Positions 29,445-50,538 of a stretch of DNA of 64,000 bases are shown piece after piece. A program made the position numbers and the translations under genes. Every line of letters starts with the position of its first letter. Within the stretch, counting starts at the first letter, position 1. The notes under the pieces are model-generated. The model was given only the letters and a program-made list of their open reading frames with translations. It ran no database searches and was not told the DNA's origin. This stretch comes from an uncultured Myxococcales bacterium (GTDB lineage Bacteria; Myxococcota_A; UBA9042; PHBI01; JAAZYN01). The DNA is taken from the NCBI GenBank assembly GCA_964478315.1, contig CAYZID010000001.1:14619-78618 (forward strand), given 5' to 3'.

Positions 29445-29516
29445 GCCGACATAGCTCAGCGGTAGAGCAGCTGATTCGTAATCAGCAGGTCGGCGGTTCA
29501 AATCCGCCTGTCGGCT
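29445..29516 (+). tRNA. tRNA-Thr (anticodon CGT)
   Basis: Cloverleaf read by eye: acceptor GCCGACA/TGTCGGC, anticodon stem GCTGA/TCAGC with loop TTCGTAA, T-arm GGCGG-TTCAAAT-CCGCC. CCA is not encoded (followed by TACC). Confidence 0.8.
29473..29516 (+). repeat. attL core: 44-bp segment of the tRNA-Thr 3' half, identical to 50456-50499
   Basis: Exact 44/44 identity with the attR copy, read directly from both sites. Confidence 0.8.
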
Positions 29517-29541
29517 TACCTTTTCCAACTTCATGGACGCT

Positions 29542-29565
29542 TGACACCCACGCTGACACCCACGC
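29542..29565 (+). repeat. two tandem copies of TGACACCCACGC next to attL (candidate integrase arm-type sites)
   Basis: Perfect 12-bp x2 repeat 26 bp after the tRNA 3' end. The same 11-mer occurs at 50380-50390 near attR. Confidence 0.6.
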
Positions 29566-29587
29566 CAGCCCCCCCCTTGGGGGGCGG

Positions 29588-29854
29588 CTAGATCAAGTCG
29601 GCAGGTGGGCGAGGAAGGGCAGTGCGAACTTCCTCGTACGTCCATGAAGCCCCGCTCGGGCCCTCCACGAGGGCCCCGAGTCCCCGGAGCTGCTCGACGC
29701 ACAGGGGCTCGGGGCCTCGGAACCCCACCACGGCGATGCCACCCACCACGCGGATGGTCTCCGGCGCCATGGCGTCGGTGTCCTTCACGACGTCGGCCAG
29801 CATCTCGTCGTCCAGCATGCCGATGCGGAACCGGATGTAGCGTTGCTCACCCAT
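29588..29854 (-). CDS. phage-associated hypothetical protein
   Basis: Last gene of the tightly packed minus-strand fibre operon. 1-nt gap to the upstream gene. Confidence 0.5.
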   Translation of the reverse strand: MGEQRYIRFRIGMLDDEMLADVVKDTDAMAPETIRVVGGIAVVGFRGPEPLCVEQLRGLGALVEGPSGASWTYEEVRTALPRPPADLI

Positions 29855-29855
29855 C

Positions 29856-30566
29856 CTACGCCTCCACGATGTCGGCGGCCGTCATGTTGATCCACGACGT
29901 GCTGTTCCCGCCCGGACCGTGCGAGAGGCCAACGGACGGCGTGTCCACCCCATCTCCGCACCAGTCCCACCAAGTCAGGCCAGAACCGTAGGCGCGCAGG
30001 TCGAGCATGCCGGCATGCCAGCGGGCCACCTCGTCGGATGACATCACCTCGCGCACGTAGGCTACCTCAGCAACAGCGCCCTTGAAGTAGTAGTAGCTCC
30101 CGAGCCGCCCAACGTACATCCGTGCTGACGGAGCGATGGCCGACGCGGCATGGGATCGCGCACCAGCGGATACCCCGTCACGGTAGTACGTGGCCAGGGC
30201 ACCGGTGGCGTTGAACGCTAGTGCGGCCGTATGCCACGCACCATCTGGCAAGTATCCTCCTGTCCATGTCACGTCCGAGCCGCCACCAACGAACCGGCAC
30301 CGTAGTTCTCCCCCAGTGTTCGAGTGGTAGATCTGCATCCACGTGGACGATCCTGGGGTGCCAAGTCCTAGTATTGATTGGCTTGAGCTTGGCACAGCGT
30401 CCGCGCGTGCACGCACAAGCCATGTTCCACCAGACGTGAAGAACCCCTTGTCGTAGAGCCACGACATGTCTCCGTACTGGTCCACCCCGTTCAGCTTCCG
30501 CGCACGCTGACGCGTCCAGCGCAAGCGCCGCGTCTGGAGCCCGTCCATCAGCAGCCCCCCCTGCAT
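29856..30566 (-). CDS. tail-fibre-associated protein with concanavalin-A-like lectin (LamG-like) domain
   Basis: ATG at 30566 overlaps the upstream stop (ATGA). Beta-sandwich-like C-terminal sequence (WMQIYHSNTGGELRCRFVGGGSDVTWTGGYLPDGAWHTAALAF). The Arg-rich N-terminal part of the track ORF is rejected. Confidence 0.5.
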   Translation of the reverse strand: MQGGLLMDGLQTRRLRWTRQRARKLNGVDQYGDMSWLYDKGFFTSGGTWLVRARADAVPSSSQSILGLGTPGSSTWMQIYHSNTGGELRCRFVGGGSDVTWTGGYLPDGAWHTAALAFNATGALATYYRDGVSAGARSHAASAIAPSARMYVGRLGSYYYFKGAVAEVAYVREVMSSDEVARWHAGMLDLRAYGSGLTWWDWCGDGVDTPSVGLSHGPGGNSTSWINMTAADIVEA

Positions 30567-30979
30567 CAGTCCACGCCGAGCTGCACGTCGTCGCCGTTGA
30601 CGACCACCTGCGGGTAGCTGTTGGCCACCGTGATGGCCGGGAACCCGGTGGCCGGCTTGTTGCTGAGCCCCGCGGTCACGTCCACGGTACCGTCGGACGT
30701 GCCGGGGTTGATGACGTACACCTCCGTGACGGTCACGGGGAGCTGGAGCGTCTGCCCCGCGGGGAGCGAGGTCCCACCGGAACCGGCCACGGCGTCCGGG
30801 CCGAAGGCGACGCTCAAGTTGACGAGTCCCGAGTTGAACACGCTGACCCACTCGGAGCGATGCGTGAAGGGGAACCGCTTGTGCCCTCCAGCAGGCACCG
30901 TGACCGGCCCGGAGTGCACCGGCGCCGTTCCGGTCGCGGCTGCGTAGGGGTGGGCCTTCTCGAAGTCTGGGCTGGCCAT
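30566..30979 (-). CDS. phage tail-fibre module hypothetical protein
   Basis: ATG at 30979 with AGGAGG 5 nt upstream. Coupled to neighbours. Confidence 0.5.
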   Translation of the reverse strand: MASPDFEKAHPYAAATGTAPVHSGPVTVPAGGHKRFPFTHRSEWVSVFNSGLVNLSVAFGPDAVAGSGGTSLPAGQTLQLPVTVTEVYVINPGTSDGTVDVTAGLSNKPATGFPAITVANSYPQVVVNGDDVQLGVD

Positions 30980-31001
30980 GCGGCCTCCTGTTGTGAGCGG
31001 G

Positions 31002-35142: not shown

Positions 35143-35895
35143 CTAGGCCGCAGGCGCTGGCGCGTGGCTTGGGCCATCCGACCACATCGTCGGCATCTGA
35201 TCCCAGGTCCTGCCGTCGAGAAGGCGGCCTGCCTTCTTCTTGTTGCGCCCACCCCACTGCTTGAAGAAGAACGGGACGTCGGCTTCACGACACTGCCTGA
35301 GGATGTCCACGACCCACGCGGGATCCATCGGCCTTGGCCTGCGCCCGGACTCACCACCAACAATCACCCAGTGGATCCCGTCCAGAGGGAGCTTACGGAT
35401 CGGCCCAAGCAGGGGCTCAACCGACAGGAACCGGACGCTTGCACCCTCGACAGCCTGGAGGTCGGCAACTCGTGATGCACGCTTCTGATCTTCCACAGAG
35501 ACGCCCACCCAGACGTTGGTTGGCCACGGGAGTTCCTTCGCCAACGATCGCAGTCGGCCAGACCTCTTCGTGAGCACCTGGAACGTGTGCTGGTGCGCGC
35601 GGACCATGACGTCGAAGACCCGCTTGATGTAGCTGTCCGGAACCTCCTCATGGAAGAGGTCACTCATGGAGTTCACGAAGACGAGCCGTGGCTTGCGCCA
35701 CCTGAGAGGAAGCTCCAAGGCTTCGGGCACCAGCCGCAAGTCGAACCCCTGCTCGTAGGCGCTCCCCGGCACACCGCGGAACCGCTCAGCGAAGGCTTCC
35801 GCGTAGCAGTACTTGCACCCCGGCGAAACCTTCGTGCAACCGCGAACAGGGTTCCACGTCGCGTCCGTCCACTCGATGTCCGATTTGGCCGACAT
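35143..35895 (-). CDS. DUF5131 (phage Gp37/Gp68, three-Cys-motif) family protein
   Basis: N-terminal IEWTDATWNPVRGCTKVSPGCKYCYAE, C-x7-C-x2-C, as remembered for the Gp37/Gp68 family. ATG at 35895 with GGAGG upstream. AT-richer than the flanks. Confidence 0.6.
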   Translation of the reverse strand: MSAKSDIEWTDATWNPVRGCTKVSPGCKYCYAEAFAERFRGVPGSAYEQGFDLRLVPEALELPLRWRKPRLVFVNSMSDLFHEEVPDSYIKRVFDVMVRAHQHTFQVLTKRSGRLRSLAKELPWPTNVWVGVSVEDQKRASRVADLQAVEGASVRFLSVEPLLGPIRKLPLDGIHWVIVGGESGRRPRPMDPAWVVDILRQCREADVPFFFKQWGGRNKKKAGRLLDGRTWDQMPTMWSDGPSHAPAPAA

Positions 35896-35950: not shown

Positions 35951-37075
35951 TTATTGTGGCGGGAAGGACACCAAAGTGCGATCCGCCATCGTTGGAGTCC
36001 CATTCCTCTTCGGCCTGCTGCCGGCCGGGGGGGCGCACGTGACCTCGCCGGCCGCCTCCATCTTCACCAGAACGGCCTTGTAGTTCTTCTTGACGTACGG
36101 CGTGCCGACGTGGTGTTCGCGGATGATGTCATCAACCATGACGGTCCTGCCAGCGAACTTGCTGGCAAGCACTCGACGAAGGTGATCCGTTGACCGCGAG
36201 TACGGGAACAGCAGGCTCAGTTGCGGGTCATCAACAGGCGTGTACTCGAACCTGGCAACGCCATCCTCAGACTTCTCGCTTTCTCGGTACATGATGTCCT
36301 TCATGATCGAGTAGCCAAGAACATGCTTGGACGCGAAGAACAGGTAGTGGCTGGTTCGCTTGCCCCCGTCCGCGCGGAAGCGGAACGGGAGAACGTACTC
36401 CGCATTGCCGCGAAGCAGCCTCTCGCCGAAGGCGTTCACGATGACGTACTCCCGTGCCGTTGGCTCAAGACCCTTGACCCTTGCACGGAGAGCATCCGCT
36501 TCATCCTCACCGAATAGTGCGTTCATGTGTTGTGCAACCAGCTCGTTGCCGAGCCCCATGTTGATGCGGTTGTAGTTGAAGAAGAAGATGAGGTCCGTTC
36601 CCCAGTCCTTCAACGCCGCGTCGAGCAGTCGCAACGACAGCCCCTTGTACCCCCATGGGTCAAAGAAGACGAGGCTCTTCGGGATGGCCGTCTCTTCCAA
36701 CCACCGAGTCATCTCTTCGCCGACTTCGAAGTTGCCAACCAACGGTTCATGCTTCAGCTGCTTGATCCCTGGGAGTTCTTCGATGGCAGCACAAAGTGAG
36801 TCGGCGCTTGCCTGGTCGGCGTCGTTGAAGATGGCCCAAAGGGTCTCGCGCAGCTTTGGGTCCTGCAGTGCCATCTCCAGCACAAGGATTGGTGTGGACT
36901 TCGAACCGTCCTTGTACCGGCCTGGCCCCGCGAACAGGTCGATGTACCCGATCACAGGTGCGCCCACCTTCACCAACATCACCCTTGCCCATGCATCGAA
37001 GTACTTGCTGACGATCGCAGCCTTGACCGCGGACGCACCAGTCTGCTCATCAAAGAAGCTTGTCCCCATGCTCAT
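35951..37075 (-). CDS. TcmP-like (three-Cys-motif partner) protein; N-terminal SAM-MTase-like motif I (IDLFAGPG)
   Basis: Immediately upstream of the DUF5131 gene on the same strand, the arrangement described for the TcmP family. YIDLFAGPGRY resembles methyltransferase motif I. Assignment from memory of the family definition, not from a search. Confidence 0.45.
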   Translation of the reverse strand: MSMGTSFFDEQTGASAVKAAIVSKYFDAWARVMLVKVGAPVIGYIDLFAGPGRYKDGSKSTPILVLEMALQDPKLRETLWAIFNDADQASADSLCAAIEELPGIKQLKHEPLVGNFEVGEEMTRWLEETAIPKSLVFFDPWGYKGLSLRLLDAALKDWGTDLIFFFNYNRINMGLGNELVAQHMNALFGEDEADALRARVKGLEPTAREYVIVNAFGERLLRGNAEYVLPFRFRADGGKRTSHYLFFASKHVLGYSIMKDIMYRESEKSEDGVARFEYTPVDDPQLSLLFPYSRSTDHLRRVLASKFAGRTVMVDDIIREHHVGTPYVKKNYKAVLVKMEAAGEVTCAPPAGSRPKRNGTPTMADRTLVSFPPQ

Positions 37076-37147: not shown

Positions 37148-38290
37148 TCACGCCGCCTGGCACCGCTGCCCGGCCTGTGCGGGCGTTGCGGCACGGGCCT
37201 TCCGTGCGGCGCGCTGGCGGCGCTTGCGGTCGCGGTCCCGGGCCCGGGCCGCCTCGCGCTTCTTCTCCAAGGCCGCGATGGTGGCCCTGGCTTCCTCCAG
37301 CTCCCTGGCGAGGGTCCTGGCAACGTCCGCGTCGGGCCCCGAGGGAGGAGCAGCCGCAGGCTGAGGCGGCGCCATGAGCTGGTAGGGCTGCTGGGCGCCG
37401 CCCCCGAGGCGCTGGGTGAGCAGCTCTACGAGCTGCCGCTGGCCGGCCGCCGCCTGGGCCTGCGCTTCCACGACCTGCTGGGCCATGGACGCCGTGGCCT
37501 CTACGACGGCGCGGCCCATCTCCGTGACCGCGGCGAGGACTTGCTGGAGCCCGACATCGCCGCTGTCCGCGGACACGTCCTCGCCCGTCCGCGGACGCGC
37601 CGGCGGGGGAGGGGGCGACGCGGGGCGTGCGTTGGGCATCGAGTAGCTCCCCGTCCGGCGCAGCACTGGCAACACCTCGTGCGCCAGCCAGCGCTTGAAC
37701 CGCTGCGCCGCCTTCACGCGCGACGTGAAGATGAGCCGGTAGAGGCCGGGCTCGTTGATGGTGACAGCACGCTGCGTTCCACCGGACGAGCGCTTACCAG
37801 ACGTCTCCTTGTCGCGAAGGGGGTCCACAATCTGGACCCCCTTCTCGTCGTCGTCGAGCCGCGAGAGGACCTGCTTGTGGTTCTTGAGCCCAAGCGCTGC
37901 GCACACGTCCTTGCCCACGAACCAGGGCTCGCCGTCCTGCATGACGACGCGCACGTCGTGCCCCTCGAAGGCGAAGGGGGCCAGGGCCCGCTCAGCGGCC
38001 TCCGGCATGGCGGGCCCATCGAGCATCATGGCCCTGGCCTCATCGGCGTTGCGGGGCTGGGGCCTGCACTCGTTGTCGGCGCCCGGGTGGGTCGCGCAGG
38101 CCTCCACGACATCGAGCGCCCACGGGTCGCCGGCCTTCCAACGATCGTAGGTGGCCGGGCCGAGCTGGACGTACACCCGGCCGCCAACCTGCACGCCGCG
38201 GCCGTAGAGCCCGGGTGAGGCCGCTCCGTACTTGCAGATCGTCACGGCGTGACTAGGGTTGGGGCTGCTCAGCAGTTCTGGCTTGTTCAC
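37148..38290 (-). CDS. BRO-N domain protein (phage antirepressor-like) with Pro/Ala-rich linker and coiled-coil/basic C-terminus
   Basis: BRO-N core (FEGHDVRVVMQDGEPWFVGKDVCAALGLKN...VTINEPGLYRLIFTSRVKAAQRFKRWLAHEVLPVLRRTGSY). GTG start with AGGAG 7 nt upstream. Confidence 0.7.
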   Translation of the reverse strand: MNKPELLSSPNPSHAVTICKYGAASPGLYGRGVQVGGRVYVQLGPATYDRWKAGDPWALDVVEACATHPGADNECRPQPRNADEARAMMLDGPAMPEAAERALAPFAFEGHDVRVVMQDGEPWFVGKDVCAALGLKNHKQVLSRLDDDEKGVQIVDPLRDKETSGKRSSGGTQRAVTINEPGLYRLIFTSRVKAAQRFKRWLAHEVLPVLRRTGSYSMPNARPASPPPPPARPRTGEDVSADSGDVGLQQVLAAVTEMGRAVVEATASMAQQVVEAQAQAAAGQRQLVELLTQRLGGGAQQPYQLMAPPQPAAAPPSGPDADVARTLARELEEARATIAALEKKREAARARDRDRKRRQRAARKARAATPAQAGQRCQAA

Positions 38291-38352: not shown

Positions 38353-38379
38353 GACTACGAGTAGTATCCTAATACATGG

Positions 38380-38408
38380 TTGCTGCGCAAGCAACGCTGC
38401 CTTATCTT
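38380..38408 (+). promoter_or_regulatory. candidate promoter TTGCTG-17 bp-TATCTT driving a leaderless RHH gene; -35 lies within inverted repeat TTGCT-GCGCA-AGCAA
   Basis: The -10 ends 6 nt before the ATG at 38415 and there is no SD. Inverted repeat at 38380-38394. Confidence 0.4.
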
Positions 38409-38414
38409 CATGTC

Positions 38415-38603
38415 ATGGCGAAGCGCACCGGAGAAAAGACCGAGCTGATCCAGGCACACGTCACCCCCGAGCAGTTCAAGAAGCTCGACGACTGGGCGTG
38501 GTCGCACCGGATGACGCGCGCGGAGGCCATCCGCCAGCTCCTGAAGGTGGGGATGGCCTACTGGGAGGAGGCGTCCGCGCGGGGCGAGGAAGGCGCGGGA
38601 TGA
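38415..38603 (+). CDS. ribbon-helix-helix (CopG/Arc-like) DNA-binding protein
   Basis: 62 aa. Predicted beta strand (TELIQAHVTPE) followed by two helices (QFKKLDDWAWSHRMTRAEAIRQLLKVG). Divergent from the BRO-N gene. Confidence 0.55.
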   Translation: MAKRTGEKTELIQAHVTPEQFKKLDDWAWSHRMTRAEAIRQLLKVGMAYWEEASARGEEGAG

Positions 38604-38872
38604 TCCTTAGCTGGCCACCGTGTTCTGTAGGCCGTAGGATGTACTTCGCAACGGAGGTGGTCGGGATGGGACGCAAGATGCGTCAGAAGGCGCGTGCCCT
38701 GCTTAGCGGCATGAACAACGCCCTTGCCTTCACCGGGGACATCTCTCCTCGCCGCAAGCACTTCAGTGGCCCAGAACGTGACGCCGAGAACATGGCGCGC
38801 GACTGGGCTTGGACGATGCACGACTTCAAGGTGGCATGTGAGCAAGAGGCGAGGCGGTCGCAGACAACCTAG
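38600..38872 (+). CDS. hypothetical 90-aa protein translationally coupled to the RHH gene (ATGA overlap)
   Basis: Strong G/C bias at third codon positions in this frame, unlike the overlapping 38724 frame. No recognisable domain. Confidence 0.45.
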   Translation: MILSWPPCSVGRRMYFATEVVGMGRKMRQKARALLSGMNNALAFTGDISPRRKHFSGPERDAENMARDWAWTMHDFKVACEQEARRSQTT

Positions 38873-38924
38873 CAGCGCTCCTGCAAAGGCTGACACAACC
38901 GTCGAGGTAGGATCGCAAGCTGCT

Positions 38925-39362
38925 CTGCCGGCCGATCATGTCGTTGCGACGACGTTCTACGCATCACGCGGCCCACTCCCTGCCCCTGAGCTTCTTCGGG
39001 CCTACGAGATGGCTGTACCAGGCTTGGCCGAGCGCATCGTCATGCACATGGAGGGTGAGAGGGACCACAGGTTCGAGATGGATCGGGCCGTGCTCAAGAT
39101 GGAGCGGCTCGGGCAATACCTTGCGGCCGGGCTCGCCATGGCTGGGATCGCTGGCGGTGTGACCTTCGCAGCCCTGGGCGCCCCATGGGCCGGGGCAGTT
39201 GTTGGCGTCATCGTCCCGCTCTCTGTTCTCTTGCGCGGGGTGTTCAAGGTGCGCCACGGGGACAGCGGGCTTGAACTGGACACGCGGGCTCAGAGCCCAC
39301 CGGCTGCGCCGGAGGACACGAACGAGAGAGGTCCGCAAGCCACAACGACCGACGACGGCTGA
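38925..39362 (+). CDS. DUF2335-like membrane protein (start codon uncertain)
   Basis: Conserved-looking GPLPAPELLRAYEMAVPGLAERIVMHMEGERDHRFEM followed by two TM helices. No in-frame ATG/GTG/TTG between the upstream stop (38872) and this motif. 38925 is an in-frame CTG after GAGGTAGGA. Next ATG is at 39009. Confidence 0.4.
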   Translation: MPADHVVATTFYASRGPLPAPELLRAYEMAVPGLAERIVMHMEGERDHRFEMDRAVLKMERLGQYLAAGLAMAGIAGGVTFAALGAPWAGAVVGVIVPLSVLLRGVFKVRHGDSGLELDTRAQSPPAAPEDTNERGPQATTTDDG

Positions 39363-39412
39363 CATCCTCGCCCTCCGCTGCTACCGTCGTCGTGACCAGC
39401 GGAGGTGCCACG

Positions 39413-41424: not shown

Positions 41425-42561
41425 CTACGGCCGCCCGAACCCAGTCAGGTAGAAGCTCTGGTCCGTGAGGACGCCGTCCTTCGTGAGGTGCACCCGGAAG
41501 GTCGTGTAGTTGGTGAGCGGGTCGTAGTTGAGCACGGTCACGCACGCCGCGAAGGTGGCGGCGGTGGGGGTATAGAAGTCCGCCGCGTCGGAGGCCGGCG
41601 TCACGTGGACGGTGTTCAGCACGCCCTCCACGACGATCTCGACCACGCCCGCGCTCGGCGAGCTGTAGCTCTTGATGTTGCCCTTGTGGTCCGACGCGCT
41701 GTAGCCCGGGGAGCCCCCGGTGTAGTTCATCCGCCCCGACGTGATGACCGTCACGTCGTAGAGGGTGTCCTGGATGTTGGTGATCTCCGCCTCGGCGTTG
41801 GACAGGCCGGTCTCCAGGTCGGTGACCGCGGTGTCCAGCTCCGTGAGGTCGCGCGCGGGGGCGCCGAACCACGTCTTCGTTCCCGCCTTGTCCTGGATGG
41901 TCGCCAGGGCCGCGATGATGGTCGTCAGCGCCTGGGACACGCCGAGCTGCGGGTACATCCCCATGATGGCCCTGACGCGCGTCTCCGCCCCCCCCAGCCC
42001 GTCGTCGTTGTAGTCGAAGGGGCTCAGCATCACGATCGCCGGCACGTTCCCGTTCCAGCTCGTGACGCGCGCGAACTGGAACCACCCGGCGCTCCCGTCG
42101 GGCTCCGTCACGCCCACCCCGAAGACGACCCGCTGGCGCGACACCGTCTTCGGTGACGGGCTCATGGCCACCTCGGTCCCGGTCGCCGCGTCCCACGCCT
42201 TGCGCAGCTCCTGGTCCGTGTCGAAGCCCACCGCACGAGCCCACAGGTAGGGGGTCTGCCCGACCTGGCCGGAGAGGTCCACCGTGGAGATCTGCCCCGA
42301 GGCCGCGGGGTCGTGACGCACGACGGTCCCCGTGGGGATCTTCCCATCGGTTCCCGCCGGCGCCGCGGTGAACAGCAGCCCAGCCCCGATGGACACCGCG
42401 GCGATGTTCGTGGTGTCCAAGGCGCACCCCGACAGCACGCCAGCTCCTTCCCCGACGAGACCACCGAGCATGCGGCCCAGGTACTCGTCCACGAAGGTCT
42501 GGATGCGGTCGAGATCCACCAGGTCGAGGCGCTCGTCGTCGTACAGCTTCACGAAGTCCAT
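41425..42561 (-). CDS. phage tail/baseplate-associated protein (gpI/tail-fibre-like, downstream of J)
   Basis: ATG at 42561 with AGGAG upstream. Sits directly after the baseplate J gene. Confidence 0.5.
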   Translation of the reverse strand: MDFVKLYDDERLDLVDLDRIQTFVDEYLGRMLGGLVGEGAGVLSGCALDTTNIAAVSIGAGLLFTAAPAGTDGKIPTGTVVRHDPAASGQISTVDLSGQVGQTPYLWARAVGFDTDQELRKAWDAATGTEVAMSPSPKTVSRQRVVFGVGVTEPDGSAGWFQFARVTSWNGNVPAIVMLSPFDYNDDGLGGAETRVRAIMGMYPQLGVSQALTTIIAALATIQDKAGTKTWFGAPARDLTELDTAVTDLETGLSNAEAEITNIQDTLYDVTVITSGRMNYTGGSPGYSASDHKGNIKSYSSPSAGVVEIVVEGVLNTVHVTPASDAADFYTPTAATFAACVTVLNYDPLTNYTTFRVHLTKDGVLTDQSFYLTGFGRP

Positions 42562-42614: not shown

Positions 42615-44048
42615 CTAGGTGACGTCCACCAGGTCTGGCTTGGTGCGGAGCACGGTCCGCAGGTCTGCGGGTTCCACGTCGCCTGTGGGGCTCTCGATGG
42701 TCGCGAGGCGCAGCCCGTCCACGCGCTTCAGAGCGCAGCGCACGTCGCTGAGGACCATCGCCTGGCCCGGCCCGAGGGACGCCAGGATGGCAACCAGCTC
42801 GTCCTTGACCGTCGTGCGCAGGGTGGAGACGTCCACCCCGGTCCCATCCGCCACGATGCGGACCGTGAACGACACCCACTGCACCGTGGGGGCGACCACG
42901 CGCACGCGCGTCCCGGCCGCCCGGTAGCCTGGGGAGCCGAAGATGTCGGACGGGTCGCCCTCGATGGCCGCCTGGAGCTCGCGGAGCACGCCGGTGTAGA
43001 CCTGGTAGTTGCGGATCCTCCAGTGGTCCCCCGGCGAGAACAGACCCGCCTCGGGCCGCGGGTAGAGGAGCCCGCGCTCCTCCTGGATGAGCCACGGGGC
43101 GTCCTGACCCTGCGCGAAGGTGAGCTGCAGCCAGTTCGCGCCGTCCCCGCGCTCCACCGTGTAGGTGGGCCCCACCATGGGGGCCTCGAAGTAGAGCGAG
43201 CGGGCCCCGTTGGCTGGGATGACCCCGGTCACCTCCGCGCCATCGCGGGTGAACCCGACCATCCCGGAGCCGTCGTCGACGACCAGCTCGGCGTAGCCCG
43301 GGCGGAAGGGGTCCTCGAGCAACGCAGCGTGCCGCAGCCGCACGCCGTCGGAGCCCTGGAACGTGCGGGCGAGGTACAGCAGGGCCGCACCCTGGGACCG
43401 CGCCAGGCCCGACAGGAACAGAAGCGCCCGCTGGCGCAGGGCGTCGTCGCTCTCCCTGTCCGTCCCGCCGGCGACGGGCGCCACGTTGGTCACCGATACG
43501 ACGCCATCCGGCATCGCCACCGGGATGGTGAGCGTCCCGCTGGCCGCGTTGCCGCGGGTGCCGCGCGTCGTGCAGACCACCTGGATGGGTGGGGCTGAGC
43601 TGTTGGGCGGGTAGAAGGCCTCCCCTACCTGCATGGTGACGGTCTGGGTCGTCACGTAGACCAGGGTCGCGTCGTCCTTGTGGGCCACCCTGGAGCCCGC
43701 TGGGATCTCGAGCGCGGTCGACGTGTCCGTGCGTTCGACGCGGAGCACGGGGCCCGCGGCGGGGGCCGCACCGAGCCGCGGCGTGAAGCCTGGCGGCATG
43801 TCCATCAGCCGGGCGTCCAGGTCTTTGCCCTTGGCATCCAACCAGAAGGCGTCGCGGATGGCGCCAAGGCGCTCCTCGACTAGCTCGAACTCCTCGGCGA
43901 TGACTGCGAGCACGTGGCGCAGTGAGGAGCTCTCCGTCAGGTCGACCACGGATGGGCGCATACGTGCGACGAAGCGTGCGCCCAAGCCCTGCTCGATCTC
44001 CTCGCGCGTCCGGGGCTCGAACTCCCCAGGCTGGTTCGACGTGGTCAT
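42615..44048 (-). CDS. baseplate J-like protein
   Basis: Length and position between W-like and I-like genes. Sequence features consistent with the Baseplate_J family. Confidence 0.6.
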   Translation of the reverse strand: MTTSNQPGEFEPRTREEIEQGLGARFVARMRPSVVDLTESSSLRHVLAVIAEEFELVEERLGAIRDAFWLDAKGKDLDARLMDMPPGFTPRLGAAPAAGPVLRVERTDTSTALEIPAGSRVAHKDDATLVYVTTQTVTMQVGEAFYPPNSSAPPIQVVCTTRGTRGNAASGTLTIPVAMPDGVVSVTNVAPVAGGTDRESDDALRQRALLFLSGLARSQGAALLYLARTFQGSDGVRLRHAALLEDPFRPGYAELVVDDGSGMVGFTRDGAEVTGVIPANGARSLYFEAPMVGPTYTVERGDGANWLQLTFAQGQDAPWLIQEERGLLYPRPEAGLFSPGDHWRIRNYQVYTGVLRELQAAIEGDPSDIFGSPGYRAAGTRVRVVAPTVQWVSFTVRIVADGTGVDVSTLRTTVKDELVAILASLGPGQAMVLSDVRCALKRVDGLRLATIESPTGDVEPADLRTVLRTKPDLVDVT

Positions 44049-44057: not shown

Positions 44058-45641
44058 CTATCTGTTGCCCGGCTTGGGGACGGGCGCCATGAGCTGGATG
44101 CGTCCGCCGTGATGGGCCACGAGGTGGAGGTCGGCCGTGATGGCGTCTCCCTCGTCGGTGACCTCGATGCGTTCGACCTTGGCGATCCTCGGGTCACGGA
44201 GCGCTTGCCGGCGCGCGTGCGCCGCAACAAGAGCCGCCGCCTCGTTCCCGATGTCCTCACCCACGAGCTTGGGCAGCCCGAGGGCGGGGAAGGGGCCGCA
44301 CTCGCCCTGGACGGTCGCGAAGCGGGTCGTGATCCCCTGGCGCAGGTTGGCGGGGCCGCGCACCCACCGAACATCAGTGGCCTCTGCGCCGTCGAGCGCC
44401 CAGTCCCCGTCCTTAAGGAGGACATCGCTACCGTAGGGGTCGCCGTCGCCGGACATCTCGGCGCCATCTCCCTGCCCGCCACCGCCAGGGAGGGAAGGAA
44501 CCAAGATCGTGATGCCGGGGCGGAACGGGCTCCCGTCGTTCATCATCGTGGCCGAGGTCATCCCGTTGAGGTCCGCGATGAGCTTCCACCAATCCCCGCT
44601 CCCAAGAAGCTCCTCCGCGATGTCGCGCAGGGTGACACCGGCGGGCACGATGTAGGAGACGACCGCGGCGTCCGGCGGCAGCTCGGCCGGAGGCGCCATC
44701 CACGACGCGAACGGGACGTCCCCTCCCTCGCCACGACCCGCGCCAGCGACGCCAAGAAGCTCGTCGGCCCGACGCTGCGTGTCACCGATCGGCGCGAGGA
44801 GGCGCATGATCGTATCGCGGCTGGCGCCCCGGTGCGCCTGTGGCAGGCTCTCCCACTTCGCGATGATGGACGCGCGGGAGTTGGCGGCGACCCTGGAGAT
44901 CTCCGCGGCCATGGCGAACGGGAAGGTCACGACGCCGCGCAGCTCGTCCATGGCATCTAGGACCGCCAGCACAGTTCGCCCAAGGGCGCGGATGGGCTCC
45001 TTGAACTCCTCCAGCGAGTAGCGGAGGTCGCTGAGGAGCAACTCGGTCTGCGCCAAGTAGGCGTTCGCGGAGTTGATGAAGGCCGTCGCCGCGCGGGCCC
45101 TCGTAACAGCCGACGCGAGGAGCCCGGTCGGAAGCACCTCCTCGGTCGCGTAGGCGCGCAGGGACAGCTCCCAGCCGGTCGTGAAGTTGTGCTGGTCCAC
45201 CGACTTGGACCTGCGGATGCTGCTCGGCTCCACGAGGTATGCGTGCCCGTAGTCCAGGGCGAGGAAGACCATATGGATGCGACGCGGCTGCGTGCGCGCC
45301 GCAGCGCCACTAGCCACGACTTGCCGTCCTTCAGCAGCTTGCGAGTCCTCCTGGTAGCGCCCGAGGAACTCCTCGAAGGCCTCCACGTGCTCCTTGCCAG
45401 TGATGAAAGCTTCGCCGCCGTTCGCCGTGCGTGCCGCTCGCGGCCCGTAGCCCGAGGTTCCGCGCAGCAGGATGCGCGTCTCGCGCACGCCGGTGTGTTC
45501 CCGCTCCGGCTCCGCGCCAAGCGTCCAGGTGAGCTGCGACGCCTCGTCCCGCGACACGTCGTAGGAGGACACGGGGGGCAGGATGAAGGCTCGGTCCAGC
45601 CGATCGTCCTCGTAGACCTGCAACATGAACCGGACCTTCAT
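44058..45641 (-). CDS. baseplate protein with LysM-like segment and C-terminal GPW/gp25-like domain
   Basis: LysM-like YIVPAGVTLRDIAEELLGSGDWWKLIADLNG. gp25/W-like C-terminus (RFATVQGECGPFPALGLPKLVGE...KVERIEVTDEGDAITADLHLV). Confidence 0.6.
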   Translation of the reverse strand: MKVRFMLQVYEDDRLDRAFILPPVSSYDVSRDEASQLTWTLGAEPEREHTGVRETRILLRGTSGYGPRAARTANGGEAFITGKEHVEAFEEFLGRYQEDSQAAEGRQVVASGAAARTQPRRIHMVFLALDYGHAYLVEPSSIRRSKSVDQHNFTTGWELSLRAYATEEVLPTGLLASAVTRARAATAFINSANAYLAQTELLLSDLRYSLEEFKEPIRALGRTVLAVLDAMDELRGVVTFPFAMAAEISRVAANSRASIIAKWESLPQAHRGASRDTIMRLLAPIGDTQRRADELLGVAGAGRGEGGDVPFASWMAPPAELPPDAAVVSYIVPAGVTLRDIAEELLGSGDWWKLIADLNGMTSATMMNDGSPFRPGITILVPSLPGGGGQGDGAEMSGDGDPYGSDVLLKDGDWALDGAEATDVRWVRGPANLRQGITTRFATVQGECGPFPALGLPKLVGEDIGNEAAALVAAHARRQALRDPRIAKVERIEVTDEGDAITADLHLVAHHGGRIQLMAPVPKPGNR

Positions 45642-46348
45642 CCGTCAGCCTCCGAGCGCTCCGAGACATGCACGGCCGCGGCGCGGATGGCGTCGGGCAC
45701 GAGGGTGGGGACCTGCCCGAAGAAGGGCGTGATGGCCTTGTGCGTCGTGGGGTCAACGGCCAGTGCTTGGATCCACGTATCGACCGCTGCCAGGTAGTCG
45801 TTGATGGCCTTCAGGTGGTCCAACAACGGGCCCGCCAGGGGCAGTCGCTCCGTTGCCTCCCCGCCCCGTGAGACACGGAGCACGCCGCCATCAGCGAGCT
45901 GGACCCGTACGGTGGCGTCCCCCGCCTCCCTGGCATCCAGCGTGATGGCGCCGTGCTCGTCGACGATGAGTCGCGCCCCTCCGTTCACGCGGGCGAAGTC
46001 GGCCTTCCCGATGACGCCCGGGTGGTCCTCCTGCTGGTCCACCACCGGGGCGTCCTCAACCACCTCGCCCCCGTCAGCGGGGAGCATCCCGATGGCGAGC
46101 GGCTTCACGTAGGGACCGCGCAGTACGAGGAGCACCTGCCCTCGGTCGCGTGCGAGCTCGCCATGGCCGCTCTCGGGTGGCTCCACGGGCTCTACCCCCC
46201 ACGTGCGCTTGCCGCCGCCGACCGTTGCGAGCGGGACCTGCGTCCAGAACGCACCGTCCTCGGTTGAGCAGTCGACAACGACGTGCCCGTCGAGCACGTA
46301 GACGTCGTCCACGAGGGCGACCATGGCGCCTGGCGCGTCGAGGCTCAT
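45638..46348 (-). CDS. phage baseplate protein (gpV/spike-like)
   Basis: Size and position. 4-nt overlaps on both sides. Confidence 0.45.
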   Translation of the reverse strand: MSLDAPGAMVALVDDVYVLDGHVVVDCSTEDGAFWTQVPLATVGGGKRTWGVEPVEPPESGHGELARDRGQVLLVLRGPYVKPLAIGMLPADGGEVVEDAPVVDQQEDHPGVIGKADFARVNGGARLIVDEHGAITLDAREAGDATVRVQLADGGVLRVSRGGEATERLPLAGPLLDHLKAINDYLAAVDTWIQALAVDPTTHKAITPFFGQVPTLVPDAIRAAAVHVSERSEADG

Positions 46349-48141
46349 GCCGCCACCCCGCCCAGGCCGCGGGCGCCGCTCAGCTCCCGAGCACGTTCAT
46401 CGAACAACCCGCGGCTGAACTGGACCGTGGTCGTCGCCGTGATGGTCGGGCCGTTGGCGGTGAAGGTGTGCGTGACCGACTCCACGTAGGCCGTCAGCTC
46501 CCCGCCTGGCACGCCTGCTGGCATCTGCACACGGATGGGCTCACCGTGGCGAAGAGGGCGCCCTTGGAGCCCGGCCGGGCTGTACTTGAGCGTCAGCGTC
46601 CCCGACTCGAAGCGCTCGCGCCCCATGTGCCACTGAGCTGCCTGCGCCGCGATGGTTCGGATGAACCGCGCAAGGGGCTGGTTCTTCCCGTCGTAGGGTG
46701 GGAAGAACGGCCAGTTGGGCTGGTAGAGCCTGGCGCCCCGCCAGTCCATGGGGCCCGTCGCGCGCCCTGGGGCCGTCTTCTGCACGATGGGGAGTTGGAG
46801 CTCCTCCATGAACCGCAGCACCGACTGCGCCTGCATGGGGAGGTCGTCGGTCACCATCGTGACCGCGGCAGCGTCATCTGCCGTCCACGTCACCGCCATG
46901 ACCTTGTCGCGGGGTATGACCGGGGCGGTGCTTGCGTCCCAGGTCACCTCCGTGAAGAGGTCCTCGTCGATGTCGAGCTGAGCCGCCCCTCGGACGGTGC
47001 TGGTGTCACCGACATGGAATCCGGCACCTTGGCCCCGGACGTAGTCCTTCAGCGGGGAGACGCGCCAGGGGCGCATCCGATAGAGGAGCACGGGGTTGCG
47101 CCCAAGTACCTTCGCGAGCCCCGATGCGAGCCGGACGGGGGGGCTGCGGCGAAGCGCCCTCGCACGGTCGAGGTCACGCTTCACCATGGCCTCTTCGAGC
47201 ACATTGCGATCCTGAAGCCCGAGTGCTTTGTAGAGCCGCAGCCCGGCCTTCGTGAACGTGCTCGTGTCAACCCGCCCTAGCGCCTCCGCGCTGAGGTAGC
47301 CGCGCAGGTCGCCGGGGGCTTCTTCCGGCACGCCTGGCGCCTCCAGGGACGGGAACATCTCCATCATCCCTGGGTCGCCCATGAACGAGGCGAAGAGCAT
47401 GCCCGTGACGCTGTTCCCGCCCGGTGTCAACTGCGACAAGCCGTTGAGCGTCCAACCTGGAACCCGCTCTACAACACGGTCAGGAGCGAACGCCTTGCGG
47501 GTGTTGGGGTCATGGACAACCTCCGCGTGCCTGCCAAGCAGCAGGCCGTTGCCCGTCCCATCGCCGCCGCCGAGGGTCTCGGGGAGGGTCACGACGGCCA
47601 ACTCGCGCCACAACTCGCGCAGGGCCTCCCCGATGTCCCGCCGCATGAAGGCCGTCTCGATGCGGTTCACGCCGTGCAGCTCCACCGCTGCCACCGTGGA
47701 CCTGACCAGGGCCTCGATGACGTTCCGCCACGAGTTCCACCCGAAGGCGGTCCCGGCCCTGTCCTCGTAGTCCGCTCCCCCACGAGCCCCCGAGTAGGTC
47801 ACGTAGAGCTGCGCCAGGGTGAGCGGCTGGAGCCAGGAGCCAGCGGACACGTGCACGTAGTCGGTGAAGATGCCGCCGCGCCCGTCCGCCTTGATGCCTC
47901 CGCTGCGCCGCGTGACGTACCCGAGCGCCACGGCCGTCTTTCCGAGCCGTACGAGGAGCCAATCGGCCGGCCTGGGGGTGTGGGTGGCGAGGAGGTGGCG
48001 CGGTAGCTTGAAGACGGCCTCGATGCCGCCCCACGGTGGGGACACCTGGTCGGTCCACGACACGGACACGCAATGGTCCGTCAGGTCGGTGGGGGCCGCG
48101 CCGTGGCGGTGCAGCTCGATCGTGGGGACGCGCGCCGACAT
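46345..48141 (-). CDS. phage tail/baseplate-hub-associated protein (DNA-circularisation/gpD-like position)
   Basis: 598 aa between the tape-measure fragment and the baseplate genes. No specific motif recognised. Confidence 0.45.
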   Translation of the reverse strand: MSARVPTIELHRHGAAPTDLTDHCVSVSWTDQVSPPWGGIEAVFKLPRHLLATHTPRPADWLLVRLGKTAVALGYVTRRSGGIKADGRGGIFTDYVHVSAGSWLQPLTLAQLYVTYSGARGGADYEDRAGTAFGWNSWRNVIEALVRSTVAAVELHGVNRIETAFMRRDIGEALRELWRELAVVTLPETLGGGDGTGNGLLLGRHAEVVHDPNTRKAFAPDRVVERVPGWTLNGLSQLTPGGNSVTGMLFASFMGDPGMMEMFPSLEAPGVPEEAPGDLRGYLSAEALGRVDTSTFTKAGLRLYKALGLQDRNVLEEAMVKRDLDRARALRRSPPVRLASGLAKVLGRNPVLLYRMRPWRVSPLKDYVRGQGAGFHVGDTSTVRGAAQLDIDEDLFTEVTWDASTAPVIPRDKVMAVTWTADDAAAVTMVTDDLPMQAQSVLRFMEELQLPIVQKTAPGRATGPMDWRGARLYQPNWPFFPPYDGKNQPLARFIRTIAAQAAQWHMGRERFESGTLTLKYSPAGLQGRPLRHGEPIRVQMPAGVPGGELTAYVESVTHTFTANGPTITATTTVQFSRGLFDERARELSGARGLGGVAA

Positions 48142-48144: not shown

Positions 48145-49227
48145 CTAGTCCCTCACGTGCCCACCGACGTGCAGGAGCTTCTTGCCGTCGCTGTCCTTGC
48201 TGCCTGGCGTCGGTGTCTTCTTGTGCGAGTCCTCGCTCGCCGCAATGGTCTTCTTGATTGCGTCATCCATGGCGCCGAAAGAACCACCAAGGAGACTCGC
48301 GACCTTGAGGATCGCCTTCGTGAGCATCTTGGCCCCGTCGCCAACCTTGTTCATCGTGTCCTTCAGTTCCTCAACGGTTGCAATCAGATCCTTCGCATCC
48401 TTGTTGCTCATGGTGTTGAGCCGCGCCTGCTGCGCGGCAGCCACACGACCCATCAGCCCGGCAGCTCGTCCAGACGGAAGCGACGGGAAGCTCGGTTCCT
48501 TCAGCCTCCCAGCCAGTCCAGTTGCCATCCCGCTCGTGGCCCCCATCGACGCGAAGCCCAGTGCCGCCGTACGCCCACCGAACATCTCCACCATGGCCTT
48601 GCGGGTGATGTTCGGGTCGCCCTGCATCTTCTCGATGGCCTTGACCATCCCGAGGACGCCCCCGCCCGACTGAGCGGCCCTGGCGAGAAGCGCCGAGCGC
48701 GCCAGCCCGCCAAACGGCCCGAGCAACGTGCTTCTCGCATCCGCTTGGGCCCGCGAGAGGCTCGCCGAGACCGAGCCGAGGCGCATCCCCTGCCCCTTGA
48801 AGGGCCCACCCGTGGCCTGCATCCGCGCGGCGAACTCCTCCATGCGCGAGACGTTGACGTTCAGCCCCTGTCTCCCCATCTCCGCCGTGTTGGCGGCGAT
48901 GGCTTGGAGGAACTGATCCACGCGTGCCCCGCGCAGCCCTTCCTTCATCGCTAGGGAGACCATCCTGACGATGTTCCCTCCCGTGCGCGTTCCGCCAACA
49001 CCCGGCGCAAGTTGCCCGCGGTAGGCCGCGATGGCGCCGAGGCCCACACCGCGCGTCATGAGGCGCAGGAAGTTCGGGTGGCTACCAGACAAGAAGCCGA
49101 CCTGTTGCCCGAAGGCCTGCGAGAGTGCAGCCGACTCGTCCGGCATGTAGCCGTAGCCGGCACGAGAGGCGCCAGGACCGGACAAGGTCGCCATACCTCG
49201 CATCCTCTGGATGCGTGCCTTCTGCAT
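48145..49227 (-). CDS. tail tape-measure-like protein, C-terminal portion only (probably truncated)
   Basis: Gly/Ala/Met-rich low-complexity TMP-like sequence. The track ORF runs to 49437 but would overlap the divergent integrase 5' end. An internal ATG at 49227 is used. Only about 360 aa, too short for a myovirus TMP. Confidence 0.45.
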   Translation of the reverse strand: MQKARIQRMRGMATLSGPGASRAGYGYMPDESAALSQAFGQQVGFLSGSHPNFLRLMTRGVGLGAIAAYRGQLAPGVGGTRTGGNIVRMVSLAMKEGLRGARVDQFLQAIAANTAEMGRQGLNVNVSRMEEFAARMQATGGPFKGQGMRLGSVSASLSRAQADARSTLLGPFGGLARSALLARAAQSGGGVLGMVKAIEKMQGDPNITRKAMVEMFGGRTAALGFASMGATSGMATGLAGRLKEPSFPSLPSGRAAGLMGRVAAAQQARLNTMSNKDAKDLIATVEELKDTMNKVGDGAKMLTKAILKVASLLGGSFGAMDDAIKKTIAASEDSHKKTPTPGSKDSDGKKLLHVGGHVRD

Positions 49228-49330
49228 GGCGAGTTGGTATCGCTGCGCAAGGGCTGCCCCACCGACTGCGGCCAAAGCGCCAAGTACTGGAACGGAGGCA
49301 CCGAGTCCTCTCCCAAGACCGGCAATCCAG

Positions 49331-50281
49331 TTGGAGTTCGACCTCGCGAACGCATCGCTGAGCGCCCCGGCCCCGGCCACCCTGGGCGACCTGGTGGACC
49401 GCTTCGTGGCGCGGACATCGACATCGACTGGGCGCACCCTCTCTCCAGCGACGGCGCGCGCCTACAAGTCGCAGCTCCAGTCGCTGGTCGCGGTCGCAGG
49501 GCGTGGGCGCCCCATCATGCACGTCACCAAGGCCCACGTAGAGGCAGCCGTCCAGCGTCCTGCGTCCAGCCGGTCGCGATCGCAGTACCTCCGCGCCATC
49601 CGCGCGCTCGTCCGGTGGGCCGTCGCCAGGGGGTGGATGGTGGACATCACCGACGGCGTGGTCGTCGACGCAGGACCGACCGTCATCCGTCCCTACCTCC
49701 AGCCCGAGGAGGTGGAGGTCATGCTTGCCGCGGCGTCACCATCCACGCGCATCCGCGCGGGGCTCATCCTGGAGACGGGGATGCGGGCCGGGGAGGCCGT
49801 CCATGCAACGTGGGAGTGGGTCGTTCGTGGCATCGGTCGGCCATCCATCCGTATCCCTGCGGCTGACGGCGCCTGGCGTGCGAAGGGCCGGCGGGCGCGC
49901 TCCATCCCGCTGTCCGAGGCTGCACAGCGGTGGCTGGACGAAGCGCGCAGGGTGTGGCCCAAGACGAACTGGCTCCTGCACGACCAGCCGGCCCCTCCAC
50001 AGACGAGCAACTGGTGTCGGGACGTCCACCGTGCCTGCCGCCGCGCCGGCACGACGGACGTTGACACCCACGGCCTCCGTCGCACGGCGGGCGTTCGATG
50101 GCTCGCCGCTGGCCTGAGCATCTACGACGTCTCCAGGCTTCTCGGGCATGCCTCGGTCGTCACGACCGAGCGGGCCTACGCTGGCATCGCTGACGCTTCT
50201 TGGGCCTCCGTCATGGACCGCGTCGACGAGGCCGCCGAGGTCCCGCGCCTTGCGGCTGCCAGGGCGAAGCGCCGCCAGTAG
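49331..50281 (+). CDS. tyrosine-type site-specific integrase
   Basis: Core-binding region (TLGDLVDRFVART...ARAYKSQL). Catalytic motifs (RIRAGLILETGMRAGEA; HGLRRTAGVRWLAAGLSIYDVSRLLGHASVVTTERAY). TTG at 49331 chosen to avoid overlap with the TMP fragment. ATG at 49211/49226 are alternatives. Confidence 0.75.
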   Translation: MEFDLANASLSAPAPATLGDLVDRFVARTSTSTGRTLSPATARAYKSQLQSLVAVAGRGRPIMHVTKAHVEAAVQRPASSRSRSQYLRAIRALVRWAVARGWMVDITDGVVVDAGPTVIRPYLQPEEVEVMLAAASPSTRIRAGLILETGMRAGEAVHATWEWVVRGIGRPSIRIPAADGAWRAKGRRARSIPLSEAAQRWLDEARRVWPKTNWLLHDQPAPPQTSNWCRDVHRACRRAGTTDVDTHGLRRTAGVRWLAAGLSIYDVSRLLGHASVVTTERAYAGIADASWASVMDRVDEAAEVPRLAAARAKRRQ

Positions 50282-50379
50282 CCACAGCCTGCAACCACCG
50301 AGAACTTCAGAGAAGTGCCCCGCCGTGGTGTCAGCATGCGGACCGAATAGCCCTGTGAGCACGGGGTGTTGCCATAACC

Positions 50380-50390
50380 TGACACCCACG
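50380..50390 (+). repeat. third copy of the TGACACCCACG motif, 65 bp before the attR core
   Basis: Read directly. Same orientation as the attL copies. Confidence 0.5.
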
Positions 50391-50455
50391 GCGCCATCAA
50401 GGCAGTGCCGCCAGAACCCAGTGATGGCGGGATGTTGTCACCAAGAGGAGCATCG

Positions 50456-50499
50456 GATTCGTAATCAGCAGGTCGGCGGTTCAAATCCGCCTGTCGGCT
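50456..50499 (+). repeat. attR core: displaced 3' half of tRNA-Thr followed by an encoded CCA
   Basis: Identical to 29473-29516. Followed by CCA (50500-50502), unlike the intact gene at attL. Confidence 0.8.
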
Positions 50500-50503
50500 C
50501 CAA

Positions 50504-50538
50504 CCCCCGAACCCCACAGGGTCCGGGGGTTTTTCTTT
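50504..50538 (+). terminator. Rho-independent terminator (CCCCCG...CGGGGG stem with internal CCC/GGG, then TTTTTCTTT)
   Basis: Read directly. Position suggests it is the native tRNA-Thr terminator, separated from the gene by the insertion. Confidence 0.6.

Follow-up and report, generated by a model that had tools for sequence, protein, structure and literature searches.

Attachment sites in the tRNA-Thr(CGT) gene

The 64-kb stretch of DNA analyzed here (the window), from contig CAYZID010000001.1 of an uncultured myxobacterium (Myxococcota) with a GC content of about 70%, contains a 21-kb phage-derived element between an intact tRNA-Thr(CGT) gene and a second copy of the 3' part of that gene. 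In agreement with this host assignment, the named proteins that best match SecD belong to Myxococcota and Myxococcales MAGs. The minus strand carries nearly all genes of the element as one late operon, which runs from 49.4 kb down to 29.6 kb and encodes tail, baseplate, and fiber proteins, and a tyrosine integrase gene (int) lies on the plus strand next to the second copy. The open reading frames (ORFs) were picked by GC content at the third codon position (GC3) and were checked against the gene calls of metagenome contigs.

The tRNA-Thr(CGT) gene (29445..29516, plus strand) was detected by ARAGORN and by Rfam (RF00005, 74.6 bits), and its cloverleaf showed a folding energy of -33.5 kcal/mol (z = -4.9). 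Both programs identified it as the sole tRNA of the window, and the Rfam scan of the window returned no other RNA. The 3' 44 nucleotides of the gene are the core of the left attachment site (attL; 29473-29516, plus strand). This 44-mer, GATTCGTAATCAGCAGGTCGGCGGTTCAAATCCGCCTGTCGGCT, occurs exactly twice in the window, at 29473-29516 and at 50456-50499, with a start-to-start distance of 20,983 bp. No third copy was found in the window even with three mismatches allowed, and none of 100 shuffles matched. These results confirmed the intact tRNA and the exact 44-bp copy that an earlier note on this DNA had reported, and the repeat is not part of a dispersed family in the window. The similarity between the two sites stretches to 52 bp with two mismatches, starting at 29465 and at 50448; the 8-bp leftward extension is GAGCAGCT on the tRNA side and GAGCATCG on the side of the right attachment site (attR). 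The attR site (50448..50499, plus strand) thus consists of the exact core preceded by 8 bp of tRNA-like sequence. We read these 8 bp with their two mismatches as the phage-derived side of the crossover, which is on the int side and outside the crossover region.

The core copy at attR is followed by an encoded CCA and an intrinsic terminator (50500..50540, plus strand), which were recognized from the sequence and by folding. The terminator hairpin at 50502-50531 showed a folding energy of -21.8 kcal/mol and is followed by the U-run UUUUUCUUU. This is the native 3' end of the tRNA gene, now displaced. The attL core is directly followed by TACC, without an encoded CCA. This layout is the one expected from the recombination of a chromosomal tRNA gene with a phage attachment site (attP) bearing a copy of the 3' part of the tRNA. 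A scan for consensus promoters and terminators found nothing at the junction between int and the tape-measure gene, and it missed the bulged tRNA terminator that was found by folding. After integration, the CCA and the intrinsic terminator of tRNA-Thr(CGT) were exchanged at 29517-29520 for phage sequence (TACCTTTTCC…), and this tRNA, the only tRNA-Thr(CGT) of the window, must now rely on CCA addition and another downstream context.

Short repeats were found in both arms of the attachment sites. The 11-mer TGACACCCACG has four exact copies in the 64 kb, three of which are in these arms. Two copies form a tandem pair with a 12-bp period (29542..29564, plus strand) that starts 25 bp past the attL core, and a single copy (50380..50390, plus strand) lies in the integrase-side arm, 65 bp before the core. 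The fourth copy is inside int, where it codes for the conserved DTHG motif. By analogy with the tandem repeats of related loci, the three arm copies are putative arm-type integrase-binding sites. The stop codon of int is 174 bp before the core. Site-specific integration at the 3' end of the tRNA, as previously proposed, is well supported by the direct repeat, the displaced CCA and terminator, the 11-mers, and six related loci at tRNA-Thr(CGT) that are described below.

Truncation of the integrase and tape-measure genes at one junction

The integrase gene is a remnant (49331..50281, plus strand; 316 amino acids as called) with matches to PF00589 and PF02899, and its 3' end faces attR. In the alignment, residues R192, K225, H287, R290, H313, and Y323 (numbering of the 356-amino-acid ORF with its start at 49211) are invariant. 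The remnant retains intact core-binding and catalytic domains and has lost the N-terminal domain. Homologous integrases, which are 50 to 63% identical, are 372 to 464 amino acids long and have a conserved N-terminal segment of about 70 to 75 residues (F-x-DDG-x-Y…RW-x-VDAYYRGHR) that is not in the window integrase. The homology of the window integrase starts at 49322-49373, corresponding to approximately residues 68 to 97 of the homologues. In the AlphaFold model of a full-length homologue, P0015 (mean predicted local distance difference test [pLDDT] score, 89), residues 1 to 65 form a small beta-sheet packed on a helix. The best PDB matches of this model were to full-length lambda integrase, over about 370 columns, whereas lambda Int(75-356) matched over only about 280 columns. 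The missing piece thus corresponds to the arm-binding domain of lambda Int, and by this analogy it would bind the arm sites. The core-plus-catalytic fragment of lambda Int cleaves and rejoins core sites and performs no arm-dependent integration or excision. The retained window integrase resembles this fragment.

The tape-measure gene (48145..49353, minus strand), which is directly upstream of the baseplate hub gene, is truncated at its 5' end. Its homology to the 508-amino-acid tape-measure protein of a related phage contig, L091, covers residues 112 to 462 of that protein and ends at 49353, and about 110 N-terminal codons are gone. The two 5'-truncated genes appear to meet head to head within 49320..49375, and the same junction was present in all metagenome contigs bearing the element. 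The longest int ORF begins at 49211, and its first part is antisense to tape-measure coding sequence whose homology is clear. Because of this overlap, the part of the ORF upstream of the homology start is not native integrase sequence. In some tblastn alignments, the integrase homology was extended to 49181-49232; this extension was rejected since it has almost no identities and is antisense to tape-measure coding sequence.

A single deletion in a circular map with the order early genes, int, attP, and a late operon facing attP from the other side gives exactly this head-to-head structure. We infer that one deletion, of roughly 50 kb, caused both truncations. The integrase without its N-terminal domain and the tape-measure gene truncated at the same junction show that the integrative element described in the earlier note is not intact and point to a deletion remnant instead. 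The element is probably an immobilized prophage remnant.

Tail genes and related uncultured phages

The genes that follow the tape-measure gene in the operon encode a contractile-tail baseplate. The p598 protein (46345..48141, minus strand) was identified from its AlphaFold model (predicted template modeling [pTM] score, 0.70) as the baseplate central hub (gp27/Mu gp44/VgrG-like); the top Foldseek matches of the model were the phi812 baseplate, diffocin, MuSo2/Mu gp44, T4 gp27, and VgrG, with E values of 1e-8 to 1e-4. It is followed on the same strand by p236 (45638..46348), a conserved baseplate-region protein with 42 to 46% identity to, and the same position as, its counterparts in relatives. 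The next gene encodes the baseplate protein p527 (44058..45641; phrog_975, E = 2e-13), whose C terminus is similar to gpW/gp25 (sheath initiator); its L091 homologue showed a weak match to PF10934 (Sheath_initiator). Baseplate J, the gp6-like wedge (42615..44048), matched PF04865 (E = 1e-18) and phrog_6 (E = 5.5e-45). The baseplate-associated protein p378 (41425..42561), which comes after baseplate J, was assigned by synteny and by 31 to 39% identity to relatives. The hub, wedge, and gpW/gp25-like proteins expected of a contractile-tailed phage are thus present.

Beyond a 6.2-kb accessory block, the operon continues on the minus strand with tail-fiber and distal baseplate genes, assigned as a group by Pfam and PHROGs: a PKD-domain protein (33995-35053), p196 (33389-33979), a beta-helix/Big_5 protein (32219-33385), p129 (31827-32216), p273 (31002-31823), and p137 (30566-30979). 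The next ORF encodes a laminin-G/concanavalin-like protein (29856..30569, minus strand; PF13385, E = 2e-11), probably a receptor-binding tip protein, and its start is most likely the ATG that overlaps the stop codon of the upstream gene. This ORF has a lower GC3 (0.74), and gene callers keep only its last 87 codons; it may be miscalled or decaying. The last gene of the operon, p88 (29588..29854, minus strand), is supported by GC3 and is called in metagenome contigs, and it matched no family in Pfam, including relaxed searches, or PHROGs. The laminin-G ORF, p137, and p88 have no counterparts in the related phages. Relaxed Pfam searches of the unassigned ORFs of the element added nothing. The 21 kb are wholly accounted for by tail, accessory, and int genes. 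Searches with Pfam, PHROGs, and NCBIfam detected no capsid, portal, terminase, sheath, tube, replication, primase, repressor, or excisionase gene in the element, and no lysis cassette was found in it.

Homologues of p598 (27 to 42% identity) are on contigs of 70 to 78 kb, one of which is the IMG/VR uncultivated virus genome (UViG) 3300044712_001906 (77,882 bp, 70% GC). In these relatives, the gene order is sheath (PF04984), tube (Phi812_tail_tube), two small genes, a tape measure of 500 to 515 amino acids, hub, p236, p527, baseplate J, p378, PKD, p196, beta-helix, p129, and p273, with one or two additional genes between p236 and baseplate J in some of them. Between the tape measure and p273, the window is colinear, at 30 to 60% amino acid identity, with the UViG and with the Logan and Joint Genome Institute (JGI) contigs L091, L092, and L095, and the PKD protein through p273 likewise have colinear homologues at 30 to 60% identity in L091 and in the full-size relative L263, whose GC content is similar (70%). 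The relatives carry sheath, tube, and chaperone-like genes and further upstream genes that are missing from the window element, and the proteins that the relatives encode upstream of the tape measure, sheath and tube included, gave no tblastn match in the 64-kb window. These results indicate that the element is the distal third of a contractile-tailed (myovirus-type) phage, probably of about 70 to 78 kb and about 70% GC. The L263 integrase belongs to a different family and is only about 28% identical to the window integrase; in L263, too, the end of the late operon converges with an integrase gene. In a related phage, a PIN-domain gene and a partner gene are located on the opposite strand between baseplate genes (L092:16855-18188 and L094:7246-8579), a further site of moron insertion in this operon.

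Among GenBank phages, p598 has no match, the best integrase match is 28% identical (Thermus, Ralstonia, and Gordonia phages), and baseplate J matches only a haloarchaeal virus. Scans of IMG/VR for close relatives with p598 and with int found nothing. As judged by sequence comparison, the parent phage appears to belong to a lineage without relatives among GenBank phages.

Accessory block in the tail operon

The accessory block (35143-41388, 6.2 kb) is the AT-richer part of the element. In the relatives L091, L092/L263, and L095, p378 is directly followed by the PKD gene, and the block is therefore an insertion in the window element. Its GC content is 0.646, compared with 0.679 for the whole element and 0.706 and 0.725 for the two flanks. 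The AT-richer cargo that had been noticed before is thus present, but the contrast is modest, and the tail genes have a host-like GC3 of 0.86 to 0.96.

Two adjacent minus-strand genes at one end of the block encode a DUF5131 protein and TcmP (three-Cys-motif partner). The DUF5131 protein (35143..35895; PF07505, E = 1.5e-100) has a CX6CX2C motif and matched the B components of two PADLOC candidate systems (PDC-M41B, E = 1e-113; PDC-M30B, E = 2.8e-110). DUF5131 is a subgroup of the radical-SAM superfamily (PMC9477430). TcmP (35951..37075; TIGR04474, 176.6 bits versus a cutoff of 53; PF22560) has a C-terminal GMT-like winged helix-turn-helix (wHTH) domain, matched the A component of PDC-M30 (PDC-M30A, E = 7.5e-21), and has the lowest GC content in the element (0.588). 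By sequence, the pair is a match to the PADLOC candidate PDC-M30. PDC systems were predicted by "guilt-by-embedding" and are experimentally unvalidated (PMC10855318). Neither TcmP nor the DUF5131 protein has a sequence relative in the PDB. A second TcmP-DUF5131 pair was observed in L262 (GCA_002304945.1; L262:927-3109 and L262:11444-13011) beside a type I restriction HsdR gene and a related integrase, and AbiEi/AbiEii genes lie past an int-proximal tRNA fragment of the same contig. L262 looks like tandem defense islands at the same tRNA.

The next gene encodes a Bro-N/antirepressor (Ant)-like protein (37148..38290, minus strand; PF02498, E = 6e-25; phrog_130 antirepressor, E = 2e-50). A small plus-strand cassette of gene calls (38376..39362) then encodes a protein of 62 to 75 amino acids that is ribbon-helix-helix (RHH)-like by eye (start at 38376 or 38415, end at 38603), a 77-amino-acid ORF (38639-38872), and a DUF2335 membrane protein (39042-39362; PF10097, phrog_3996). 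The window element shares this cassette of RHH-like, small-ORF, DUF2335, and Bro-N genes (37148-39362) with L095, where its location is a different one (L095:14156-16357), between the genes for p527 and baseplate J. The cassette therefore behaves as a moron that can move. The TcmP-DUF5131 pair and the RHH-like/DUF2335/Bro-N genes are mobile accessory modules. The remaining two genes are p220 (39392..40075, plus strand), which has an apparent signal peptide, is Cys-rich, and ends in a Gly-rich membrane tail by sequence inspection, with only sub-threshold matches in Pfam, and p396 (40081..41271, minus strand; GC, 0.619), a predicted lipoprotein with an LPSC lipobox and a coiled-coil region. Among 1.84 billion representative proteins, p396 has 15 homologues at E <= 1e-3 and 3 at E <= 1e-10. 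Apart from TcmP, it is the lowest-GC gene of structural size.

The suggestion that the cargo was the place to look for undescribed systems held only weakly, because the main pair is already listed as PDC-M30 and the other genes are common phage morons or near-orphans. A role of the cargo in defense or superinfection exclusion is plausible. A stronger version, in which the block is a defense or superinfection-exclusion island, the DUF5131 protein and its wHTH partner would be a working antiphage system, and the cargo would be the reason why the remnant was kept, is a tentative idea that we consider unlikely.

Integrase family at tRNA-Thr(CGT)

Integrases of this family (50 to 63% identity) adjoin tRNA-Thr(CGT), or a reverse copy of its 3' part, at six other loci. 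Four of these loci (L098, L096, L179, and L258) have an intact tRNA-Thr(CGT) downstream of int, on the other strand. The remaining two, L262 and L180, have only the 3' part of the tRNA there: past int come tandem short repeats, a hairpin, and, in reverse complement, the tRNA sequence from the CCA to the anticodon loop, after which the DNA is unrelated. Comparable tandem repeats are found between the int 3' end and the core in the related loci. L179 and L180, from one metagenome (JGI Ga0075120), have a common int-side arm and diverge right after GATTACGAAT, and this divergence sets the limit of the core at the anticodon loop (5' edge), no more than 1 nucleotide from the boundary of the window repeat. 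In L179 (L179:1996-2069), the arm joins the tRNA 5' half, which is the integrated form; in L180 (L180:3831-3863), it joins unrelated DNA, which is attP or a tandem junction. The family is specific for tRNA-Thr(CGT) at these loci. Scans of IMG/VR and of metagenomes with the integrase alignment gave mostly unrelated tyrosine recombinases (21 to 35% identity), since the patterns were generic; L179 and L180 were the useful matches. In L096 (L096:3844-11272), three tyrosine integrase genes and a resolvase gene stand in a row beside another tRNA-Thr(CGT), and the last integrase ORF reads into the antisense strand of the tRNA.

L098 is from a related genome, with a CoaBC protein 67% identical to that of the window and the same CoaBC-UDG-HU-HU-QueA gene order. 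No closer stand-in for an empty-site comparison was available. The two adjacent HU (Bac_DNA_binding) genes of the window (23988-24593), in which a 62-nucleotide region is 79% identical (repeat D1), are also kept in L098. On the other side of the element, a minus-strand gene directly to the right of attR (50561-53944) encodes a protein of 1,127 to 1,177 amino acids with internal repeats of a 120-bp period (D3, 53485-53660). This protein matched no Pfam family and is presumably a chromosomal secreted or surface protein.

The left flank of the window was found on five metagenome or SRA contigs and the element on four, all 100% identical to the window. Because all of these contigs are identical, the data represent one clonal population. 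Two Logan contigs stop within the tRNA, and a 21,013-bp Logan contig stops exactly at 50499, the last base of the repeat. This contig end is assembler behavior at the 44-bp repeat and is uninformative on circular forms. A look-up with PlsB gave only a 10-kb contig that falls short of the attachment site.

Origin of the element and alternative explanations

Altogether, the results are best explained by a prophage that integrated at tRNA-Thr(CGT), was cut down by one deletion, and is probably immobile; we place the probability of this account at about 0.85. The proposed history is as follows. A temperate contractile-tailed phage of an uncultured lineage, with a genome of about 70 to 78 kb and about 70% GC, would have infected the uncultured myxobacterium. 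Its tyrosine integrase would have recombined attP with the tRNA-Thr(CGT) gene, with an attP core that is a copy of the tRNA sequence starting at the 5' edge of the anticodon loop and ending with the discriminator base. The full tRNA at attL would thereby have been rebuilt from phage-supplied sequence without CCA, and the native 3' part with the CCA and terminator would have moved 21 kb away, to attR. A later internal deletion would have taken out the whole stretch from the first ~75 codons of int to the first ~110 tape-measure codons, including the early, regulatory, replication, head, packaging, sheath, tube, and chaperone genes, and would have left the tape measure, hub, wedge, and fiber genes together with the 6.2-kb accessory insertion. 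With an integrase that has lost its arm-site domain, the remnant would most likely be unable to excise alone and would be fixed in the chromosome. The tyrosine integrase (PF00589) and the phage tail genes that the earlier note had placed between the repeats are present, and its conclusion that the region was acquired horizontally stands, as 21 kb of phage DNA.

Several observations weigh against this account. MAFFT aligns about 20 N-terminal residues of the window tape-measure ORF to the N termini of its relatives, and an internal deletion in a Gly-rich region could account for some of the length difference; the absence of the upstream genes is unaffected by this. Every tail ORF still has its full length, and no further decay is seen in the surviving ORFs, so either the deletion is recent or the genes are maintained for some reason. 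The 316-amino-acid integrase, with its intact active site, could act with the help of another element. The empty-site junction, defined as the tRNA 5' half (…GAGCAGCT) plus core plus CCAACCCCCG, gave no exact match in the metagenome contigs, which are from clonal samples, and because no empty bacterial site (attB) was found, the insertion is deduced from the structure of the locus alone. A CoaBC scan of the genome collection gave no close relative among the matches listed, which were about 36 to 48% identical and spread across bacteria. In the only related genome seen, L098, the orthologous tRNA is occupied by a different prophage, which indicates that the site is a reused integration hotspot. 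The core is antiparallel to int in the six related loci, with int on the arm by the tRNA 3' end, whereas in the window the core is codirectional with int, int is on the other arm, and p88 ends the arm where the relatives have int. This opposite position could reflect a rearrangement more complex than one deletion. The 8-bp tRNA-like extension is contiguous with the int-side arm, so that the phage attP really had the window layout, and a lineage-specific attP arrangement is the simplest reading of the int position.

The same opposite position of int would also fit two or more elements in tandem at this tRNA, with a deletion or rearrangement that brought together an integrase and a tail module from different elements. 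Reuse of tRNA-Thr(CGT) is consistent with such an arrangement, as are the int-proximal tRNA fragments without a tRNA 5' half in L262 and L180, the three integrases and resolvase of L096, and the divergent integrase of L263, which shows that integrase modules are exchanged in this phage group. However, the same exact 11-mer in both arms fits a single attP, the late operon of L263 likewise ends convergent with an integrase gene, and one deletion is more economical; we regard a tandem origin as improbable. The 21-kb element could instead be complete and still mobile, for example, as a phage satellite that has its own baseplate and fibers and borrows the heads, tubes, and sheaths of a helper myovirus. 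The perfect attachment sites, the intact active-site residues, and the full length of each tail ORF relative to its homologues would agree with mobility, and the Bro-N/antirepressor-like gene could in principle sense a helper. Satellites such as phage-inducible chromosomal islands (PICI) and P4-like elements have their own replication/primase module, a regulator, and packaging or capsid-redirecting genes, but the Pfam, PHROGs, and NCBIfam searches found no such gene, and no excisionase gene, in the element. In addition, the integrase is without the N-terminal domain of its aligned close full-length homologues, the tape measure is truncated at the same point, and the gene order is simply that of the distal third of the 70- to 78-kb genomes of the relatives. 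The attP circle junction (…GAGCATCG plus core plus TACCTTTTCC…) gave no exact match in IMG/VR, so that neither the excised junction nor the empty site, both of which had been proposed earlier as checks, was found with exact patterns; these results weakly suggest that there is no excision, within the limits of exact matching and clonal samples. A mobile element is thus very improbable. A tail-derived machine domesticated by the host (a tailocin or an extracellular contractile injection system) would explain the intact hub, wedge, and fiber genes with their host-like GC3. Such machines consist of a sheath-tube-baseplate set, but neither the sheath nor the tube that a contractile particle requires was found anywhere in the 64-kb window, including the element. 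The element also has a truncated tape measure and no lysis cassette, and a domesticated machine is extremely improbable.

Comparison with known systems

Temperate phages and islands with lambda-type (Campbell) integration enter the 3' part of tRNA genes, with a core from the anticodon loop to the 3' end. The sublocation classes of integration sites in tRNA genes were reportedly described by Williams in 2002. The window element is similar to Campbell-type integration in that one junction has a regenerated tRNA and the other a direct repeat of the tRNA 3' part, the int 3' end faces the attachment site, putative arm-type repeats are in both arms, and the boundary is at the anticodon loop. It differs in the integrase without the N-terminal domain, the absence of a detected excisionase gene, the regenerated tRNA without an encoded CCA and terminator, and the position of int on the arm opposite to that of the related loci. 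The integration mechanism is of the classic Campbell type, with a lambda-like tyrosine integrase, and the present state is a cryptic prophage. The cryptic prophages of E. coli K-12 are deletion-derived partial gene sets. The window element is like these in the kept attachment sites, the damaged integrase gene, the partial structural set, and the retained accessory moron genes, and it differs in that the breakpoint lies within about 50 bp as one head-to-head fusion and the surviving ORFs are undecayed.

The Myxococcus phages Mx8 and Mx9, from the same host phylum, have tRNA-targeting integrases with attP inside or overlapping int. The relatives of the window integrase in L096 and L098 have an attachment site that overlaps or abuts the int 3' end, and in the window the core is 174 bp past the int stop codon. 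The window element showed no detectable sequence relationship to Mx8 or Mx9, and a link to them was rejected on the basis of the GenBank phage comparisons of p598, the integrase, and baseplate J given above. In comparison with PADLOC PDC-M30, TcmP and DUF5131 are likewise adjacent and co-oriented, with strong scores and no detected difference in composition, but the window pair is inside a phage tail operon and not in a chromosomal defense island.

The integration event itself is ordinary, and current understanding is unchanged by these findings. The element is a clean example of how one deletion that removes the arm-binding-type domain of the integrase along with most of the phage would turn a prophage into a fixed chromosomal segment. 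It is also a pointer to an uncultured myovirus lineage without relatives among GenBank phages, and its tail operon is one more natural context of the uncharacterized TcmP-DUF5131 pair. The integrase family, whose target is tRNA-Thr(CGT) and whose core boundary is defined, may serve as an integration tool for high-GC Myxococcota.

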